Positions 29,760-39,177 of a stretch of DNA of 64,000 nucleotides are shown in pieces (position 1 is the stretch's first letter; the number at the start of each line of letters is the position of its first letter). Position numbers and translations under genes: made by a program. This DNA comes from Escherichia coli (GTDB taxonomy: Bacteria > Pseudomonadota > Gammaproteobacteria > Enterobacterales > Enterobacteriaceae). The notes beneath the pieces were generated by a model. That model saw nothing but the letters and a program-made list of their open reading frames with translations, was not told where the DNA came from and did no database searches. The stretch lies in NCBI RefSeq assembly GCF_009931435.1, contig NZ_CP043414.1, one strand, 5' to 3'.

Positions 29760-30491
29760 ATGAAAAAATGGAAAGTACGTAGCGCGTTGGTGGCATTAGT
29801 CGTGCTGTTGGCCGGTTGTTCCAGTAATGCGCAGTATAATAGCAGTGCATCGGGCAATGTCGGCACCGCCTGGGGTGGGGATGTGCACTCAACGGTTCAG
29901 GGCGTATCTGCTGAACGAGCCTGGCGCGATCCGGCAGAGATGATCGTTATTAGTTATTCGACTAATGTTCCTTCCGGCTACGACCGCGTTTATAGCATTC
30001 GTATTAACGAACTTGAATATGCTATTCGCGATGGTAATTTTAATTCTCTACCTATTACGCGGGTTTATAATTCATCAGGTAAAGAACTACGCTATATAGT
30101 CCATGCCAGAGTAGGAATGAATTACCAATTATATGTCCGCAATTACAGTCGTAACACCAACTACGAGATCGTTGCGACAGTTGATGGCCTGGATGTTCTC
30201 AATGGTAAACAAGGTTCCCTGAATAACAACGGCTATATTGTGAATGCCGGGGATTCGTTGGCGATTAAAGGATTCCGCAAAGATAAACATACCGAAGCGG
30301 CTTTTCAGTTCGCCAACGTTGCGGATTCCTACGCAGCCAATTCGGCGCAAGGCGATGTGCGTAATACCGGTGTAATTGGCTTTGCAGCTTTCGAATTGCA
30401 AGGCCCGGCGCAAAACACGCTGCCGCCGTGCTCTGGACAAGCCTTCCCGGCAGATAACAATGGCTATGCGCCGCCACCGTGTCGGAAATAG
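29760..30491 (+). CDS. Predicted lipoprotein of unknown function (not present at this position in K-12 as far as I recall)
   Basis: 243 aa; signal peptide with lipobox LAGC; N/S/Y/G-rich; AT-rich coding sequence with rare ATA/AGT/AGA codons; preceded by an AT-rich gap. Confidence 0.7.
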   Translation: MKKWKVRSALVALVVLLAGCSSNAQYNSSASGNVGTAWGGDVHSTVQGVSAERAWRDPAEMIVISYSTNVPSGYDRVYSIRINELEYAIRDGNFNSLPITRVYNSSGKELRYIVHARVGMNYQLYVRNYSRNTNYEIVATVDGLDVLNGKQGSLNNNGYIVNAGDSLAIKGFRKDKHTEAAFQFANVADSYAANSAQGDVRNTGVIGFAAFELQGPAQNTLPPCSGQAFPADNNGYAPPPCRK

Positions 30492-31547: not shown

Positions 31548-31805
31548 TTCGCTAAATATTTCCCGGTGTGCATAGTCATGCCGGGAAACATTCATCAGTG
31601 CGATATATGTTTTTATATTTCTACGCGACTTTTTCTTAGCTCTGTTCACCTGCCTGGTTGTTTCAGAACATAAGTAATATTTAAAACACGAATATTCAGA
31701 AACCAGATTGTCACAAGGAATATTAATTCTTCCCGGTAGTTCTCATTCTTACGTTTACAAATAGTGTATGTTCTGAACAACTATTGTTTTTTAAGCGGTA
31801 AAGAA

Positions 31806-34604
31806 ATGAGACGGATTGATGTTATTTGCAAGGAGCTGGAGCGACTGACGTATGGGCTGGAACTGTCTGATTTAGCGAAGGAGAAAGCATTTACTGCTGA
31901 GGCGATTGGTTTTAACCTTGGGCTGGCACGTAACTCGGTTAGTAAAGATCTTAATCAATTATGGAATGAAGGCCTGGTGGTAAAAAGTCAGGGACGTCCT
32001 GTTTTTTTTCTACATCGTCACGCACTAGAATTGCTCATTAATCGAAAACTGGATGATTGCGAATGCATAGTTCATTCAGTGGCTAGTTTATTGCCAAAGA
32101 AAGAAAAATATACAGATGATGATCCGTTTTCCGGACTTATCGGATACGACCGTAGTCTCCGTGATGCGGTAGAAAAAGGCCGCGCAGCGGTGCTCTATCC
32201 CCACGGACTGCATGTGCTGTTAACCGGGGCATCTGGTGTTGGCAAAACATTCTTTGCTGAGTTAATGCATTGCTTCGCTTGTAAGCACACCATAGGTTCG
32301 CCACCTCCGTTGGTTTACTTTAACTGTGCCGAATATGCTCATAATCCGGAGTTGCTTTCCTCTCATCTGTTTGGTCACCATAAGGGGGCATTTACCGGGG
32401 CAAGCGAGAATAAAACGGGGCTGGTGGAGCAAGCTGACGGAGGTTATTTACTTCTGGATGAAGTGCATCGCCTCCCGTATGAAGGACAAGAGAAGCTCTT
32501 TTCTATTCTCGATAAAGGTGAATACCGCCCGCTTGGTTCAAGTGGGCCAACATATTCAATTTCGGTGCGCCTTATTTGCGCCACCACAGAGTTGGTCAAC
32601 TCCTCACTATTGCGTACCTTCCAGCGGCGTATCCAGGTGTATATCGACTTACCGGGTATTCGCCAGCGTTCGGTCGAGGAGCAACTCGAATTGATTGTCA
32701 GCTTCTTCCAGCGCGAAAGTCGTAAAATTGAACGTACCATAAGCCTTGATAAAACCCTTTTGCACTGGTTGTTAAGTAAACCCCTGGAAGGCAATATCGG
32801 CCAGCTTAAAAGCGATATTCAGTTCTTGTGCGCGCAGGCGTGGGCGTCGGGAATGACCGAGCGCAATGATACACTAGAGTTAGATAAACGACTGGCGGAG
32901 ATGCCGTTTAATACCACGCCGGAGCAGCGCCTGCTGGTCGATGCGTTGTTTGGCGGTAAAGATCGTTTGAACGTGGATGCGCGTACGTTGCCCGCGTTAA
33001 AAAATTCGTTGGCGACCAGCGCGGAAATAGAAGAGAGCGATCTGTTTTACAGTTTCCTGACTCGTGAATATGTCAATCTGCGCAACAGTAACGTGCCGCC
33101 CGCAGAAACGCTGGCTATCCTGAAAAACAAACTCAGTTCGATTTTTGAATACGGTCTCTATAGCCGCCATAGTACGGCGCATCCACCGCGCTATGGCGAT
33201 CAAATTGAGGAGCGGGTGACGTTGCTGATCGGTTACGTGGAGCAGGTATTAGGATTTACGTTGCCAGAAAACCTGGCGAACCCGTTACGTAAACACTTTC
33301 TTGCGCTGATTGGCTATGTGCGGCGAGGGCTTATACCTCAACTCTATTCCTCCAGCTTGATTCTGGATCGCTGTAAAGATGAGTATGACAATGCCACGCT
33401 TCTGTGCCGCAAAATCAATGAGCTGCTGCATATTCAGTGCCCGGCGATGGAGGTGGTCTGGCTGTGCCTGTTCCTGAAAGAGTGTCGCCACTACCGCCAG
33501 CGCATCGACACCAGCCCGGATTGCGGCGTGATTCTAATCGCTCACGGTGCGACCACCGCAACGAGCCAGGCGCAATATGTGAATCGGGTGCTGGAGCGCG
33601 ATCTGTTCTACGCAATTGATATGCCATTTGAGCAGTCGGTGCATGACACCCTGGAAACCCTGACCCGGATGATTCAGGACCGGTGCTGGCAGCGGCTGAT
33701 ACTGATGGTGGATATCGGATCGCTGGTTCATTTTGGCAGCACCATCAGCAAGCTGTTCCAGATTGACGTTCTGTTGTTGCCAAATATCACTCTGACCAGC
33801 CTGCTGGAGGTGGGGCTGGATTTAAGCTACGAAACTGGGGATCTATCGCAATTGGCTGTGCTTATGCAGAGTAAAAATATCCCTTGTCGGCTCTGCACGC
33901 CGCAGCAAGAGAGCGGTGGCAAAGTGCTGGTTATCTCATGTATAACCGGAATGGGGACGGCAGAAAAGATCAAAAAAGTGCTGGAGGAGAGCTTTGGCGA
34001 GCTGATGTCGCAGGACACGCGTATGGTGATTCTCGACTATAACGAGGTGCGCAGCCTGGAGCGTATTCAGCAGGCGCTTAATGCCAGTGAACGGCTGGCA
34101 GGGATCGTCGGCACCTTCCAGCCGGGACTGCCGGATATTCCGTTTATCTCGCTGGAGGAACTGTTTTCCGAGCAAGGGCCGGAGCTGGTGCTTAGCCTGC
34201 TGACTCCGGATCTCTCAAGCAGCGAGCGCCGACTGGAGATGGAGCGCAGCGCCATGCGCTTTATCAGCGCGCTGACCATGGAGAGCATCATCAACCATAT
34301 TTCGGTGCTCAACCCGCAGCGAATTCTGAAAGAGATCGAGGACGTTCTGAACCACTTAACCAACACGCTCTCCCTGAAACCGAGCCGCCAGGTGACACTA
34401 CGTTTTCTGATCCATTGCTGCTGCATGGTCGAGCGTATCGTGATTAACCGCAAACCGTTACAGATGGCGCTGGAAAACCGGCTTGATCTGGACGCTCGTG
34501 CCTTTAGCGTCATCAAATCCTCCTTTTTGCCGATTGAAGAGGCTTACGCTATCCGTTTATCGGACGCAGAATATTTTTATATCTACGAACTGCTCTACAG
34601 CTGA
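31806..34604 (+). CDS. Sigma-54-dependent LevR-type transcriptional activator with PTS regulation domains (DgaR-like)
   Basis: Start chosen at MRRIDVICKELERL (ORF extends 14 codons further upstream); Walker A GASGVGKT; GAFTGA motif (HHKGAFTGASENKTG); about 930 aa, a size that accommodates PRD/EII-like regulatory domains. Confidence 0.8.
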   Translation: MRRIDVICKELERLTYGLELSDLAKEKAFTAEAIGFNLGLARNSVSKDLNQLWNEGLVVKSQGRPVFFLHRHALELLINRKLDDCECIVHSVASLLPKKEKYTDDDPFSGLIGYDRSLRDAVEKGRAAVLYPHGLHVLLTGASGVGKTFFAELMHCFACKHTIGSPPPLVYFNCAEYAHNPELLSSHLFGHHKGAFTGASENKTGLVEQADGGYLLLDEVHRLPYEGQEKLFSILDKGEYRPLGSSGPTYSISVRLICATTELVNSSLLRTFQRRIQVYIDLPGIRQRSVEEQLELIVSFFQRESRKIERTISLDKTLLHWLLSKPLEGNIGQLKSDIQFLCAQAWASGMTERNDTLELDKRLAEMPFNTTPEQRLLVDALFGGKDRLNVDARTLPALKNSLATSAEIEESDLFYSFLTREYVNLRNSNVPPAETLAILKNKLSSIFEYGLYSRHSTAHPPRYGDQIEERVTLLIGYVEQVLGFTLPENLANPLRKHFLALIGYVRRGLIPQLYSSSLILDRCKDEYDNATLLCRKINELLHIQCPAMEVVWLCLFLKECRHYRQRIDTSPDCGVILIAHGATTATSQAQYVNRVLERDLFYAIDMPFEQSVHDTLETLTRMIQDRCWQRLILMVDIGSLVHFGSTISKLFQIDVLLLPNITLTSLLEVGLDLSYETGDLSQLAVLMQSKNIPCRLCTPQQESGGKVLVISCITGMGTAEKIKKVLEESFGELMSQDTRMVILDYNEVRSLERIQQALNASERLAGIVGTFQPGLPDIPFISLEELFSEQGPELVLSLLTPDLSSSERRLEMERSAMRFISALTMESIINHISVLNPQRILKEIEDVLNHLTNTLSLKPSRQVTLRFLIHCCCMVERIVINRKPLQMALENRLDLDARAFSVIKSSFLPIEEAYAIRLSDAEYFYIYELLYS

Positions 34605-34668
34605 TCCCCTGATTTACGGGGCTTAAGGCCTCATCCAATCTCTTTTCCTCTGAGCGTGACACAAATTC

Positions 34669-34683
34669 TGGCACGTCCTTTGC
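34669..34683 (+). promoter_or_regulatory. Sigma-54 (RpoN) -24/-12 promoter for the PTS operon
   Basis: TGGCAC-GTCCT-TTGC matches the TGGCAC-N5-TTGC consensus exactly, about 40 nt upstream of the EIIA start and just downstream of the activator gene. Confidence 0.7.
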
Positions 34684-34722
34684 TCCTGACGAAATGTAAA
34701 CACTGGAGCAAAGGAGGCTATT

Positions 34723-35151
34723 TTGACCACAACTGTATCTATTCATCCGTTACCTGAAATTTTGCTGCTAACTCACGGCGGCTGGGGGCTGCAGCTCTGC
34801 AACAGTCTGCGCATGGTGATGGGCGAAATCGAAGGCGTGACGGAAATCGCGCTGATGCCTGTCGATACGCTGGGCGAGTTTTACCAGCGCGTCGAAGCCG
34901 TGGTGAAAACCATGCCAGAAGGTTCGCTTATCGTGACCGATTTTATCGGCGGCACCACCTCTAACGTGGCGGCGCGGCTGAGCGCCGATTATCCGGTGGC
35001 GGTGATCTCCGGGCTTAATGCCTCGCTGCTGCTGGAGGCGCTGGACAAGCGCGAACATGGCCCACTGACCGCCTGCGTGGCCGATCTGGTGGAAGCTGGG
35101 CGCAACAGTTGCCTGGACGTCGTCTCCCATATTCGTCAATTACAACAGTAA
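34723..35151 (+). CDS. PTS mannose-family EIIA component (DgaA-like)
   Basis: 142 aa; TTG start 5 nt after AAGGAGG; EIIA-Man-like N-terminal region (LLLTHGGWG) with candidate phosphorylatable His. Confidence 0.75.
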   Translation: MTTTVSIHPLPEILLLTHGGWGLQLCNSLRMVMGEIEGVTEIALMPVDTLGEFYQRVEAVVKTMPEGSLIVTDFIGGTTSNVAARLSADYPVAVISGLNASLLLEALDKREHGPLTACVADLVEAGRNSCLDVVSHIRQLQQ

Positions 35152-35161
35152 GGAAAATCGT

Positions 35162-35647
35162 ATGGCAAACATCGTGTTATGTCGCATTGACAGCCGTCTT
35201 ATCCACGGACAGGTGGTGACGAAGTGGGTGGGGCAATCCCAGGCCAACCGTATTGCGGTGGTCAGCGACGAGCTGGATGCCGATCCGTTTATGAAAAATA
35301 TCTACCTGATGGCCGCGCCGCCGAATATCAAAGTGGACTGCTTCAGCAACCAGAGCTTCGCGGCCGCGTGGAAAGACAACCAGCTGGGCGACGGCAACGT
35401 GCTGGTGCTGTTCCCGTCGCTGGCGGCGATTCAGGAAGCGGTGCAGCAGGGCTTTGACGTGGCTGATATTCAGGTTGGCGGCTTAGGCGGCGGGCCAAAC
35501 CGTAAAGCGGTGTTCCAGAACATAACTCTGGATGAAAAAGACGTTGGCATTCTTAACGATTTGAAAAGTCGCGGCATTAAGGCTGTTTTCCAGACCATCC
35601 CGGAAGATAAGCCGCAGTCGCTGGACGATATCCTGAAAAAATTCTGA
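35162..35647 (+). CDS. PTS mannose/sorbose-family EIIB component (DgaB-like)
   Basis: 161 aa; MANIVLCRIDSRLIHGQVVTKW is the EIIB-Man N-terminal signature including the phospho-His. Confidence 0.8.
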   Translation: MANIVLCRIDSRLIHGQVVTKWVGQSQANRIAVVSDELDADPFMKNIYLMAAPPNIKVDCFSNQSFAAAWKDNQLGDGNVLVLFPSLAAIQEAVQQGFDVADIQVGGLGGGPNRKAVFQNITLDEKDVGILNDLKSRGIKAVFQTIPEDKPQSLDDILKKF

Positions 35648-35672
35648 CCCTCTGAACATGGGATAACAAATT

Positions 35673-36422
35673 ATGGATACCTTACTTTTTGCAAGCCTGA
35701 TGGGGCTGTATTACTGGTTTGCCCGGTTGCGCCTTGGCTATACCTTCTCCGCCATGCTGTTACAGCCAGTGGTGGTGGCGGTCTTTGTCGGCCTGCTGCT
35801 CGGCAACATGCCTGCGGCGATGATTATCGGCGCGGGGATGCAGTTGGTATATCTGGGTGTGACCTCAACGCCAGGCGGCAATGTGCCGTCAGACCCGGCG
35901 CTGGCGGCCTGTATCGCCATTCCTATCGCCGTTAAGGCCAATATGGACCCGAACCTGGCGATTGCACTGGCGATTCCATTTGGCGTTATCGGCGTATTCC
36001 TCGACCAGTTGCGTCGCACGCTAAATGCGGCCTGGGTGCATATGGCCGATAAACACGCGGAAACGGCCAATATGTCAGCCATTATGCGCTGCGCCTTTCT
36101 CTACCCGGCGCTGCTGGGGCTGGTGCTACGTTTCCCAGTGGTGTTCGCCGCCAACTACTTCGGCCAGAACGTAGTGGAAAGTTTCCTCAAGCTGATGCCG
36201 CACTGGCTGACCCACTCGTTTGAAATCATGGGCGGGATTCTCCCGGCGCTGGGCTTCGCCATCACCATTATGGTGATTGGTAAAAAGAGCCTACTGCCGT
36301 GGTTTATCGGCGGATTCTTCGCGGTGCTGTACCTCAAGGTGGACATCATGGCGATGGCGATTTTCGGCACCTGCGTGGCCTTCCTGATTAAAGGCCTGGC
36401 GAAAAATGAAGGAGCGGCATAA
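35673..36422 (+). CDS. PTS mannose-family EIIC component (DgaC-like)
   Basis: 249 aa polytopic membrane protein in EIIB-EIIC-EIID order. Confidence 0.8.
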   Translation: MDTLLFASLMGLYYWFARLRLGYTFSAMLLQPVVVAVFVGLLLGNMPAAMIIGAGMQLVYLGVTSTPGGNVPSDPALAACIAIPIAVKANMDPNLAIALAIPFGVIGVFLDQLRRTLNAAWVHMADKHAETANMSAIMRCAFLYPALLGLVLRFPVVFAANYFGQNVVESFLKLMPHWLTHSFEIMGGILPALGFAITIMVIGKKSLLPWFIGGFFAVLYLKVDIMAMAIFGTCVAFLIKGLAKNEGAA

Positions 36423-37279
36423 TGAGCGGCGGCGTAATGCAGCATGAACTGGTGGAGCGCGCGCGGGAGTCCGGGGCGCTGACCAAAGCGGATATCACCA
36501 AAGCGTGGTTTATCTACTGGCTTGGCGCGGAAGTTTCCAGCTCCTATGAGCGTTTACAGAGCCTGATTTTCTGCGCCTCGATGACGCCGATTATTAAAAA
36601 GCTCTATCCGCAAAAGGAGGAGCAGGTGGAGGCGTTAAAACGCCATCTGAACTTCTTCAACTCAGAGCAGACGTTTGGCGCGGTGATCCAGGGGATCTCC
36701 ATCGCCATGGAAGAGCAAAAGACCCGCGGCGAGGCGATTAACGATGCCTCTATCACCGGGATTAAAACCGGCCTGATGGGGCCGCTGGCCGGAATGGGCG
36801 ACTCCATCATCTGGGCGGCCGTGATGCCGCTGTTGATTGCTATTTTTATCCCGTTCGCCGCCAATGGCAGCGCAATGGGCGGTATTTTGCCGCTGATTCT
36901 CTACCCGGCGATTACGCTGGCAATCAGCTACGGCATGGTGCACAAGGGCTATACGCTAGGGCGCGATTCGATTATCAGCCTGCTGCAGGGGGGGCGCATC
37001 AAGGAGCTTATCTACGGCGCTAACGTACTGGGGCTTATCATGATGGGTGCGCTATCCGCGAGCTTTGTCAAGATAACCTCACCTTTAAAAATTAGCGCAC
37101 TGAAAGGCTCTGAAGTGGTGGTACAGCAGATTCTTGACTCCATCGCGCCCGGCCTACTGCCGCTGGCGGCAGTGTTCGCGATCTACTTCTATCAGGTGAA
37201 AAAGGGACCGCGTTACACCACGATTTTGCTGTCAATTGTGGCGTTGAGCGTGGTCTGCTCGCTGCTGGGAGTGCTGTAA
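36422..37279 (+). CDS. PTS mannose-family EIID component (DgaD-like)
   Basis: 285 aa; start shares one nt with the EIIC stop; soluble N-terminal part then membrane helices, typical of EIID-Man. Confidence 0.8.
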   Translation: MSGGVMQHELVERARESGALTKADITKAWFIYWLGAEVSSSYERLQSLIFCASMTPIIKKLYPQKEEQVEALKRHLNFFNSEQTFGAVIQGISIAMEEQKTRGEAINDASITGIKTGLMGPLAGMGDSIIWAAVMPLLIAIFIPFAANGSAMGGILPLILYPAITLAISYGMVHKGYTLGRDSIISLLQGGRIKELIYGANVLGLIMMGALSASFVKITSPLKISALKGSEVVVQQILDSIAPGLLPLAAVFAIYFYQVKKGPRYTTILLSIVALSVVCSLLGVL

Positions 37280-37282
37280 GCC

Positions 37283-38392
37283 ATGACGCAGAATATCTAT
37301 CAACAACTGGGGCTGAAACAAGTGATTAACGCTTGCGGTAAGATGACGATTCTCGGCGTCTCCAGTGTCGCGCCGGAGGTGATGCAGGCCACCGCGCGTG
37401 CGGCATCCTCTTTCGTGGAGATTGATCAGCTGGTGGACAAAACCGGCGAGCTGGTCTCTCGCTTTACCGGGGCGGAGGATAGCTACGTTACCTCCTGCGC
37501 CTCGGCAGGGATCGCCATCGCTATCGCCGCCGCCATTACCCGCGGCGACAAGGCCCGGGTGGCGCTCATGCCGGATAGCTCCGGCATGGCCAATGAAGTG
37601 GTGATGCTGCGCGGCCATAACGTCGATTACGGCGCATCGATCCTCAGCGCGATCCGCTTAGGCGGCGGGCGCGTGGTGGAGGTGGGGTCAAGTAACCTGG
37701 CGGCTCTCTGGCAGCTGGAGAGTGCCATTACCGACGCGACCGCCGCGCTGCTGTATGTGAAGTCGCATCACTGCGTGCAGAAGGGGATGTTGAACATCGA
37801 GGACTTCGCCCAAGTCGCGCAGATGCACAACCTGCCGTTGATTGTCGATGCCGCCGCCGAAGAGGATTTACGTGCCTGGGTGGTGAGCGGAGCGGATATG
37901 GTGGTCTACAGCGGCGCAAAAGCCTTTAACGCGCCTACCTCCGGGTTTATCACTGGTAAAAAAATCTGGATTGCAGCCTGTAAAGCGCAGCATTACGGCA
38001 TTGCCAGGGCGATGAAAATCGGCAAGGAGAACATGGTTGGGCTGGTTTACGCGCTGGAGAATTATCACCAGGGGCAGGCAATCATCACCGCGGAACAGCT
38101 CCAGCCAGTGGTTGAAGCGATTTCTGCGATTCACGGGTTAACGGCTGATATTGAGCAGGATGAAGCCGGGCGTGCAATCTGGCGTATTCGTATTCGGGTA
38201 AATGCGCAAGAATTTGGAGTTGCCGCTCGCGTCGTCGAAGCGCAACTGCGTGGTGGCGATATCGCGATTTATACACGGCGGTATAACCTCCACCAGGGCG
38301 TTTTTAGCCTTGATCCGCGTACGGTGGCGGATGGGGAGATGGCGCTTATCGTGGCGCGACTGAAGGAGATTGCAGATCATGCAAAAGATTAA
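37283..38392 (+). CDS. SelA-like PLP-dependent enzyme, putative sugar-acid-6-phosphate ammonia-lyase (DgaE-like)
   Basis: 369 aa; Gly/Ala-rich fold-type I PLP-like core (SCASAGIAIAIAAAI, SGAKAF with candidate PLP lysine); follows the PTS genes. Confidence 0.65.
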   Translation: MTQNIYQQLGLKQVINACGKMTILGVSSVAPEVMQATARAASSFVEIDQLVDKTGELVSRFTGAEDSYVTSCASAGIAIAIAAAITRGDKARVALMPDSSGMANEVVMLRGHNVDYGASILSAIRLGGGRVVEVGSSNLAALWQLESAITDATAALLYVKSHHCVQKGMLNIEDFAQVAQMHNLPLIVDAAAEEDLRAWVVSGADMVVYSGAKAFNAPTSGFITGKKIWIAACKAQHYGIARAMKIGKENMVGLVYALENYHQGQAIITAEQLQPVVEAISAIHGLTADIEQDEAGRAIWRIRIRVNAQEFGVAARVVEAQLRGGDIAIYTRRYNLHQGVFSLDPRTVADGEMALIVARLKEIADHAKD

Positions 38393-39122
38393 TTTCTATC
38401 ATAATCGTGTGGCAATTAATGTGCTGGCGAAAGATATCGCCAATGCCCGTGAAATCTATGACGCCGCCGAAGGCCACGCGGTGATTGGCGTGCTTTCCGC
38501 GCAGTTCTCCTCGGTGGATGAGGGGATCCAGGAAGTTAAACGTTGGATGGCGGAAATACCGTCCATTTCAGTAGGTCTGGGGGCGGGTGACCCGGCGCAG
38601 TATTACAAAGCTGCGATGATTGCGGCGCAGATTCATCCAGCACACGTTAACCAGACCTTTACCGGTTGTGGTTTCGCGGCAGGCGCGCTTGCGACGACGG
38701 GCGGTGAGCAGACCCATGTCAACGCGCTGGTTAGCCCGACGGGAACGCCGGGCGAAGTGCTGATTTCCACTGGCGTTAGCAGCAGCCAGGGTACGCCTGC
38801 CCGCGTATCCTGCGATACGGCAGTGCGAATGATGCTAGATATGGGCGCACACGCGGCGAAGTTCTTTCCGATGGGCGGCGAGAAGTCGCTTCCGGAGCTA
38901 TACGCGCTGGCGACCACGGCGGCGCGCAATGGTATGACGCTGATTGAGCCAACCGGCGGGATTGATTTGGATAACTTCAGTGTGATTCTAAAAACTTGTC
39001 TGGAGGCGGGTGTGCCGCGCATTATGCCGCATGTTTACAGCTCGATTATAGACCCTGATACGGGATATACCCGACCGGATGATGTAGCCGTTTTGCTGAA
39101 TAAAGTGAAATCACTACTCTGA
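38379..39122 (+). CDS. Putative KDGP/KDPG-type aldolase (DgaF-like), family assignment tentative
   Basis: About 247 aa from ATG at 38379 (the track ORF starts 9 nt earlier at a TTG); overlaps the end of the preceding gene; last gene of the operon. Confidence 0.55.
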   Translation: MQKINFYHNRVAINVLAKDIANAREIYDAAEGHAVIGVLSAQFSSVDEGIQEVKRWMAEIPSISVGLGAGDPAQYYKAAMIAAQIHPAHVNQTFTGCGFAAGALATTGGEQTHVNALVSPTGTPGEVLISTGVSSSQGTPARVSCDTAVRMMLDMGAHAAKFFPMGGEKSLPELYALATTAARNGMTLIEPTGGIDLDNFSVILKTCLEAGVPRIMPHVYSSIIDPDTGYTRPDDVAVLLNKVKSLL

Positions 39123-39177
39123 TCGGGGATTCAGGCGTTACCGACCTACAATTATGTTGTAGATCGGTATGTCTGAC

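Follow-up and report, generated by a model that had tools for sequence, protein, structure and literature searches.

The predicted sigma-54 promoter of the D-glucosaminate PTS operon dgaABCDEF in an accessory locus of Escherichia coli, and candidate DagR sites beside it and within dagR

The dag locus of E. coli

The window analysed here, a 64-kb stretch of DNA that is 100% identical to E. coli strain 2020CK-00188, carries the whole dagR-dgaABCDEF locus (window 31548-39177, 7.6 kb) between speB and loiP. We identified the following genes, with the evidence for each given in brackets.

31806..34604, + strand: dagR (dgaR), encoding a LevR-type sigma-54 enhancer-binding protein of 932 aa (NCBIfam DagR equivalog; RefSeq start)
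34723..39122, + strand: dgaABCDEF operon (ORFs; NCBIfam; RefSeq annotation)
34723-35151, + strand: EIIA (dgaA) (NCBIfam mannose-family EII)
35162-35647, + strand: EIIB (NCBIfam mannose-family EII)
35673-36422, + strand: EIIC (NCBIfam mannose-family EII)
36419-37279, + strand: EIID (NCBIfam mannose-family EII)
37283-38392, + strand: dgaE (NCBIfam DgaE equivalog)
38379-39122, + strand: dgaF/dagF (NCBIfam DagF equivalog)

The matches to the DgaE and DagF equivalogs exceed the respective NCBIfam cut-offs (688 against 600 and 352 against 300). In E. coli K-12, speB and loiP are neighbours and the dag locus is absent. Among 5426 complete E. coli genomes, 562 (~10%), including an O111:H8 strain, carry the locus, which in all these carriers is chromosomal and present in a single copy. 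The dag locus of E. coli is part of the accessory genome, inserted between speB and loiP.

Another variable gene lies close to the locus, between speA and speB, where the window contains a 243-aa ORF (29760-30491, + strand) that is annotated as a hypothetical protein and yielded no match in Pfam and NCBIfam searches. This ORF is absent from K-12, in which the speA-speB gap is 137 bp, and is present in 3557 of the 5426 complete E. coli genomes.

The dagR product matches the NCBIfam DagR equivalog with 1515 bits (cut-off 1400), and its start at 31806 agrees with the RefSeq annotation of the 100%-identical record. Pfam searches identified a sigma-54 activator domain (Sigma54_activat, PF00158, E = 1e-39) and, in a 946-aa numbering, two PRDs (residues 489-572 and 860-944) and a weak EIIA-man match (588-665). 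The protein contains Walker A (GASGVGKT, 141-148), GAFTGA (194-199) and Walker B (DEV, 218-220) motifs; the loop is conserved as G[AS]FTGA in 31/31 aligned DagR sequences (GAFTGA in 29 and GSFTGA in 2), and His-497, His-580, Cys-712 and His-870 are invariant in the alignment. In the PDB, DagR finds sequence relatives only in AAA+ domains such as those of NtrC1, PspF and ZraR and, by weak matches, in the EIIA-Man-like domains 3gx1 and 3gdw. DagR is a protein of LevR-type architecture, with an AAA+ domain, PRDs and conserved phosphorylatable His and Cys residues. For the N-terminal HTH, Pfam returned weak matches only (TrmB, E = 0.009; HTH_Crp_2, E = 0.014), and identity between E. coli and the Firmicutes over the whole N-terminal region is 33-37%. 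The conserved segments ARNSVSxxLNxL and KIKSRPV in this region are consistent with a winged helix, and the former, the putative recognition helix, is near-invariant across phyla.

The sigma-54 promoter upstream of dgaA

The region between dagR and dgaA contains four features that are relevant to transcription of the operon.

34606..34632, + strand: weak stem-loop past the dagR stop codon, probably a decayed terminator (folding)
34669..34683, + strand: predicted sigma-54 promoter PdgaA, with -24 TGGCAC and -12 TTGC (exact match; conservation; Salmonella dgaA orthologue)
34694..34696, + strand: predicted transcription start, 11-13 nt past the C of GC (usual sigma-54 promoter geometry)
34713..34717, + strand: Shine-Dalgarno sequence GGAGG of dgaA (seen in the sequence)

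The letters at window 34669-34683 (+ strand), read directly in the sequence, are TGGCACGTCCTTTGC, an exact match to TGGCAC-N5-TTGC in which GG (34670-34671) and GC (34682-34683) show the canonical -24/-12 spacing. The T of TGG lies 64 nt downstream of the dagR stop codon, which ends at 34604, and the EIIA gene dgaA has its annotated TTG start at 34723, 40 nt past the C of GC on the same strand. Both the consensus with its correctly spaced dinucleotides and its location just past the activator gene, about 40 nt ahead of the EIIA gene, had been described in the original prediction and are borne out by these measurements. Read by eye, PdgaA agrees at 16/18 defined positions with the Barrios 1999 consensus, which is reportedly mrNrYTGGCACGrNNNTTGCWNNw. 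Transcription would be expected to start near 34695, as judged from the geometry of sigma-54 promoters. The AGGAGG followed by the TTG start of dgaA (window 34723) is an arrangement that is kept across Enterobacterales.

The exact motif occurs once in the 64-kb window, with both strands scanned. In dinucleotide-preserving shuffles of the window, the mean number of exact matches was 0.31 per shuffled window, and 28/100 shuffles contained at least one. With one mismatch allowed, the window contains 10 matches against 6.9 expected, and the remaining one-mismatch sigma-54-like matches were set aside, their count being no higher than chance. Taken alone in a 64-kb window, the motif is weak evidence, and it is the context, that is, the neighbouring genes and the conservation of the element, that gives it significance and settles the promoter call.

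Orthologous loci were sought with a profile built from an alignment of the C-terminal 330 residues of DagR, so that other AAA+ activators stayed out, and 49 loci were fetched from reference genomes. These come from Enterobacterales, Betaproteobacteria (Jeongeupia, Chitiniphilus) and Firmicutes (Vagococcus, Oceanobacillus, Lucifera, Maledivibacter). In 49/49 loci, which we count as spanning three phyla, TGGCA[CT]-N5-TTGC is present on the coding strand 24-295 nt past the dagR stop codon, at an offset of exactly 64 nt in most Enterobacterales loci, and the N5 spacer and the adjacent intergenic sequence vary freely between the loci. By our own arithmetic, the motif would be expected by chance at ~6e-4 per locus.

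The profile search of reference-genome contigs returned no Salmonella enterica itself, and the Salmonella loci were fetched separately. In Salmonella Typhimurium, dgaABCDEF (STM3772-3766) is responsible for D-glucosaminate import and catabolism and is controlled by DgaR (STM3773) and RpoN (Hartman 2016, PMC4987338). Growth of Salmonella on D-glucosaminate depends on the operon, DagR and RpoN, according to Miller 2013 as described in PMC4987338 and PMC3844500. In a microarray experiment with a promiscuous activator, the operon was 39-fold up in an RpoN-dependent manner, and ChIP-chip located a sigma-54 holoenzyme site, TGGCACAACCTTTGCTCT, at Salmonella dgaA (Samuels 2013, PMC3844500).

As a comparator, we fetched a mainstream S. 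enterica locus (L052), the DagR of which belongs to a cluster that is 89% identical to the window DagR; the Salmonella Typhimurium dga system has the same gene order and content as that of E. coli. The published 18-mer TGGCACAACCTTTGCTCT is found in this locus 64 nt past the dagR stop codon, the same offset as in E. coli; the window promoter is identical to it at 15/18 positions, and in both genomes the promoter is preceded by CGCGTGACACAAATTC. Moreover, the two species have 16 identical bases, CGTGACACAAATTCTG, that cover the proximal candidate DagR site (box C, see below) and extend into the -24 element (TGG). Given the published 18-mer at the same offset, PdgaA is, as far as sequence comparison goes, orthologous to a sigma-54 promoter characterised in Salmonella, and in this sense already known. 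The function of the E. coli operon and its dependence on RpoN and DgaR are assigned by orthology, the binding and dependence data being those of Salmonella.

The two species differ in the chromosomal site of the locus, which is speB-loiP in E. coli and near yicS/glycosyl-hydrolase in Salmonella L052, and E. coli has a weaker hairpin after dagR and a broken distal candidate site (box B). In Salmonella (L052 4383-4500), a REP-like palindrome, GCCGGATGGCGGCGTAAACGCCTTATCCGGCCTAC, separates the sigma-54 promoter from the ribosome-binding site of dgaA, and a REP-like palindrome also occurs 3' of the promoter in several Citrobacter, Enterobacter and Superficieibacter loci (L006, L011, L013, L015). 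The element adds ~100 nt to the 5' UTR; E. coli lacks it, in contrast to Salmonella. The first Salmonella-labelled locus that we considered (L051, P0058) was dropped as a comparator, being a divergent copy with a 70% identical DagR and the promoter TGGCATGCCTCTTGC. This locus (GenBank AP025685, labelled Salmonella Choleraesuis) has TENA/THI-4 and BDM genes as neighbours and retains box C and the coding boxes; it represents either a second dga lineage in Salmonella or a mislabelled record.

Folding of the stem-loop past the dagR stop codon in the window gave -8.7 kcal/mol (z +1.0), no better than shuffled sequence. The Salmonella hairpin at the same position (L052 4308-4332) gave -20.4 kcal/mol (z -4.4), Lucifera and Oceanobacillus have a hairpin followed by a U-run past the dagR stop codon, and a stem-loop is present at this place in the orthologues that were folded. 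We infer that in the relatives the operon is insulated from dagR read-through; in the window strain this is uncertain, and read-through from dagR could add some expression there because the hairpin is weak.

The weak hairpin, together with the lack of a called intrinsic terminator in 34300-34800 and the frequency of exact matches in the shuffled windows, would fit a chance motif, with the operon depending on read-through from dagR or on a sigma-70 promoter that escaped recognition. This explanation appears very improbable in view of the retention of the element, with variable spacers, in all 49 loci, of its position, which is the same as that of the ChIP-positive Salmonella promoter, and of its linkage to the gene of a sigma-54 activator in which the GAFTGA loop is intact; furthermore, no sigma-70-like promoter was predicted in 34300-34800.

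Non-promoter intragenic RpoN sites have been proposed in Salmonella, and ChIP reports binding rather than initiation, so that the site could be thought of mainly as a roadblock or repressive site for the sigma-54 holoenzyme instead of the operon promoter. The element is intergenic and correctly oriented, precedes a Shine-Dalgarno sequence and a start codon and lies beside the gene of its cognate activator, and the RpoN-dependent induction of the Salmonella operon with the promiscuous activator likewise argues against such a role, which we regard as extremely improbable. Thus, window 34669-34683 is very probably PdgaA, the sigma-54 (RpoN) promoter of the D-glucosaminate PTS/catabolic operon dgaABCDEF. 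An RpoN- and enhancer-dependent operon had been anticipated in the original prediction, and the identity of DagR, the conservation in 49/49 loci and the orthologous Salmonella promoter all back it.

Candidate DagR sites

The DgaR enhancer is listed as not known (Hartman 2016, PMC4987338). In the literature that we could search, DgaR/DagR and glucosaminate led only to the 2013 and 2016 papers, and no defined site was found; Miller 2013 may already discuss sites. Our comparison of the loci revealed four candidate sites, one next to the promoter and three within the 3' coding sequence of dagR, in its final 220 nt.

34654..34666, + strand: box C, GCGTGACACAAAT, promoter-proximal candidate DagR site (loci aligned on -24; k-mer count)
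34390..34402, + strand: box A, AGGTGACACTACG, candidate DagR site in the dagR codons Q-V-T-L-R, at -276 from the T of TGG
34455..34467, + strand: box A', CCGTTACAGATGG, candidate DagR site in the codons P-L-Q-M, at -211 from TGG
34504..34516, - strand: box B, minus-strand reading TTGATGACGCTAA, degenerate in E. coli, in the codons S-V-I-K (conservation in other genera)

In box C, TGACAC begins 12 bp upstream of TGG, and the box extends from about -41 to -29 relative to the predicted start. When the loci were aligned on the -24 element, a TGACA(C/G) core was found 10-12 bp upstream of it in 30/31 non-redundant loci of Enterobacterales, Betaproteobacteria and Firmicutes, including all loci of the latter two groups, although the surrounding intergenic DNA is unalignable between loci. 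Box C is identical in Salmonella and every E. coli variant checked. In an unbiased 6-mer count of the 45 bp upstream of the promoter, GTGACA (24/31 loci) and TGACAC (23/31) were the top words, and they were strand-specific. From -330 to -46, the same word and its complement were again near the top (27/31 loci against ~2 expected, as judged from elsewhere in these loci).

The upstream boxes lie inside dagR, where protein conservation is a confounding factor, and a codon-level test was therefore used, in which the whole dagR gene was aligned by codon and the identity of synonymous codons was compared with an amino-acid-specific expectation. The strongest peak of synonymous constraint among the 932 codons (34440-34478, O/E 1.67, z 5.2) coincides with box A'. 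Further peaks were found at 34383-34415 (z 3.4), which contains box A, and at 34491-34520 (z about 2), which contains box B; another peak, at 31791-31811 (z 3.8), covers the annotated start codon of dagR and is probably due to it. In box A, which has a matrix score of 7.6 (see below), the codons GTG ACA (V-T) are invariant in 26/26 non-redundant proteobacterial genes, with 2.3 expected, ACA representing 9% of Thr codons. In box A' (CCG TTA CAG ATG, P-L-Q-M), TTA is used in 24/26 genes against 2.2 expected, including the GC-rich Jeongeupia, in which TTA accounts for 1.6% of Leu codons. In box B, the GTC of S-V-I is found in 22/23 genes (6.2 expected), and T is the last base of the codon before it in 26/30 non-E. 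coli sequences, Firmicutes included.

A weight matrix trained solely on the non-coding proximal boxes finds full-length matches in non-coding betaproteobacterial DNA, where they are paired convergently at a distance of 39 bp (GCGTGACACAAGC and GCGTGACAGATCG in Chitiniphilus; GCGTGACAGATGT and ATGTGACAGATGC in J. chitinilytica). Compared with the non-coding betaproteobacterial GCGTGACAGATG, box A' differs solely at a base for which the consensus G would introduce TGA, an in-frame stop codon; this accounts for the frozen TTA/CTA codon. The enterobacterial counterparts of the convergent pair, boxes A' (+ strand) and B (- strand), are 49-50 bp apart. In other genera, box B reads xxT GTC AT, that is, [GC]TGTCA; Escherichia alone has AGC, rather than AGT or TCT, as the Ser codon (window 34506-34508), which changes the invariant GACA to GACG. 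The E. coli enhancer may thus be weaker than that of other genera.

A box-like match within dgaA (34835-34847, matrix score 12.6) was dropped as a chance occurrence, the orthologues lacking it. By eye, none of the consensus sequences of CRP, cre/CcpA and IHF fits box C or box A', and CRP and CcpA each occur in just one of the phyla among which the box is shared. The minus strand of the -24 element itself, ACGTGCCAGAATT, has a box-matrix score of 12.2, so that box C and the -24 element together (window 34655-34675) form an imperfect palindrome, CGTGACACAA-A-TTCTGGCACG; this palindrome may be coincidental, since TGGCAC is fixed by sigma-54.

The original prediction had assumed that the activator sites probably lie within or close to the 3' end of the activator gene. 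The synonymous constraint and the recurring box give this proposal computational support, and the candidate site beside the -24 element is one that it had not foreseen. The inverted-repeat search upstream of the promoter that it had suggested turned up no meaningful inverted repeat in the single sequence, the boxes being 7-mers that become visible by comparison only.

Several observations could be taken to mean that the promoter is real and the GTGACAC boxes are not DagR sites: they could belong to another factor or to an extended promoter element, and the frozen dagR codons could reflect a different constraint on the 3' end of the gene, for example the folding of the mRNA, a translational pause near the codon of the regulatory His-870, or an internal signal. 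The support for the boxes as DagR sites is computational, and a generic repeat finder returned nothing on the single sequence; moreover, the broken box B is tolerated in Escherichia, box C lies at a variable distance (10-12 bp) from the -24 element, and the betaproteobacterial coding boxes A and A' are kept far from the promoter.

In the Betaproteobacteria examined (L038, L039, L043; Jeongeupia, Chitiniphilus), the coding boxes GTGACACT and AAACCG(T/C)TACAGATG are kept at the nucleotide level. They lie 370-500 bp from the promoter, despite the separate intergenic pair, and fall outside what the site model accounts for. The broken Escherichia box B and the mismatch of A' at an otherwise invariant G are weaknesses that strain this model as well.

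Nonetheless, such an origin of the boxes appears unlikely, although less so than the alternatives to the promoter itself. One and the same word is found on both strands, within coding sequence as well as outside it, and the matrix derived from the non-coding proximal boxes recovers the non-coding distal pairs of Betaproteobacteria. Furthermore, box and dagR occur together across phyla that have few other regulators in common, the recognition helix of DagR is conserved alongside it, and related PRD activators have the same core. An RNA element finds no backing in the intergenic region, where an Rfam search detected no family (one spurious lncRNA match, E = 0.36) and the predicted fold was no better than background (z +0.64). 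To our knowledge, the box is also absent from other Salmonella sigma-54 promoters, namely, glnAp2 and pspA. On balance, we consider it somewhat probable that DagR binds the GTGACA(C/G)A boxes (consensus GCGTGACACAAAT), which remain candidate sites.

Comparison with LevR and MtlR

B. subtilis LevR and DagR are alike in their domain organization (N-terminal HTH, putative in DagR, AAA+ sigma-54 domain, PRD1, EIIA-Man-like domain, EIIB-Gat-like domain, PRD2), and each controls a mannose-family PTS operon, that of LevR being the levanase operon with its SigL promoter; the sugar specificity of the two systems differs. The regulatory histidines of LevR, His-585 and His-869 (literature including Hartman 2016, PMC4987338), occupy positions near-identical to those of His-580 and His-870 in DagR. 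The predicted clostridial LevR sites are TGTGTCAAA repeats, which have the GTGTCA core in common with the DagR box. In contrast, the enhancer of LevR lies in non-coding DNA, with its centre at -125, whereas the distal candidates of DagR are found inside its own coding sequence and are complemented by an extra site beside the -24 element.

A similar core is present in the operators of MtlR, a PRD activator without an AAA+ domain that activates sigma-A RNA polymerase directly, in a class II-type manner. The B. subtilis MtlR operator TTGTCACA-N4-TGTGCCAA has the TGNCAC/GTGNCA core in common with the clostridial LevR sites and the DagR box, and in the B. subtilis/Geobacillus MtlR operator TTGNCACA-N4-TGTGNCAA, which serves sigma-A promoters, the half-site TGNCACA corresponds to the DagR core TGACACA. 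The MtlR site lies 7 bp from the -35 box, and box C is likewise near its promoter, 10-12 bp from the -24 element. However, the proximal DagR box is a single half-site with no clear palindrome, in contrast to the MtlR operator, and DagR, unlike MtlR, must work through sigma-54 by ATP hydrolysis.

Proposed mechanism

The sigma-54 holoenzyme would occupy the -24 GG and -12 GC as a closed complex, and transcription from near 34695 would begin only once DagR/DgaR remodels this complex via ATP hydrolysis. As in LevR and Salmonella DgaR, DagR would be switched on by HPr-dependent phosphorylation at His-580 and, by the same analogy, inhibited through phosphorylation at His-870 by the Dga EII components when D-glucosaminate is not being transported; for E. 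coli, we infer both this phosphorylation logic and the function of the system.

DagR is predicted to act from GTGACA(C/G)A boxes, one adjoining the -24 element (34654-34666) and the others in the dagR 3' coding sequence. The codon choice in the distal sites would have been frozen since the lineages diverged, with the rare TTA Leu codon replacing the consensus TGA, a stop codon. A site centred at ~-35 is much closer to the promoter than the -80 to -150 usual for enhancer-binding proteins. One possible role of the proximal site is to tether DagR, or nucleate its oligomer, beside the closed complex; alternatively, inactive DagR phosphorylated at His-870 might hold the promoter off from there. We put forward only tentatively, from the comparison of the loci, that dga promoters from Firmicutes to Proteobacteria have an unusual enhancer layout in which a DagR box beside the -24 element (~-35) is combined with distal sites in dagR codons.

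Implications

The dga genes are already named in the NCBI annotation, and the promoter itself offers no new principle. The comparative analysis provides specific candidate DagR sites where the 2016 review has the enhancer as unknown, and the distal ones would be a clear case of regulatory DNA that lies within coding sequence and shapes codon choice. The activators of this group were claimed to have no E. coli orthologues (Samuels 2013, PMC3844500). Despite this denial, a LevR-type sigma-54 activator and its PTS operon are present in about 1/10 of the complete E. coli genomes. Because the dag locus is carried by only this fraction, the E. coli RpoN regulon differs between strains.
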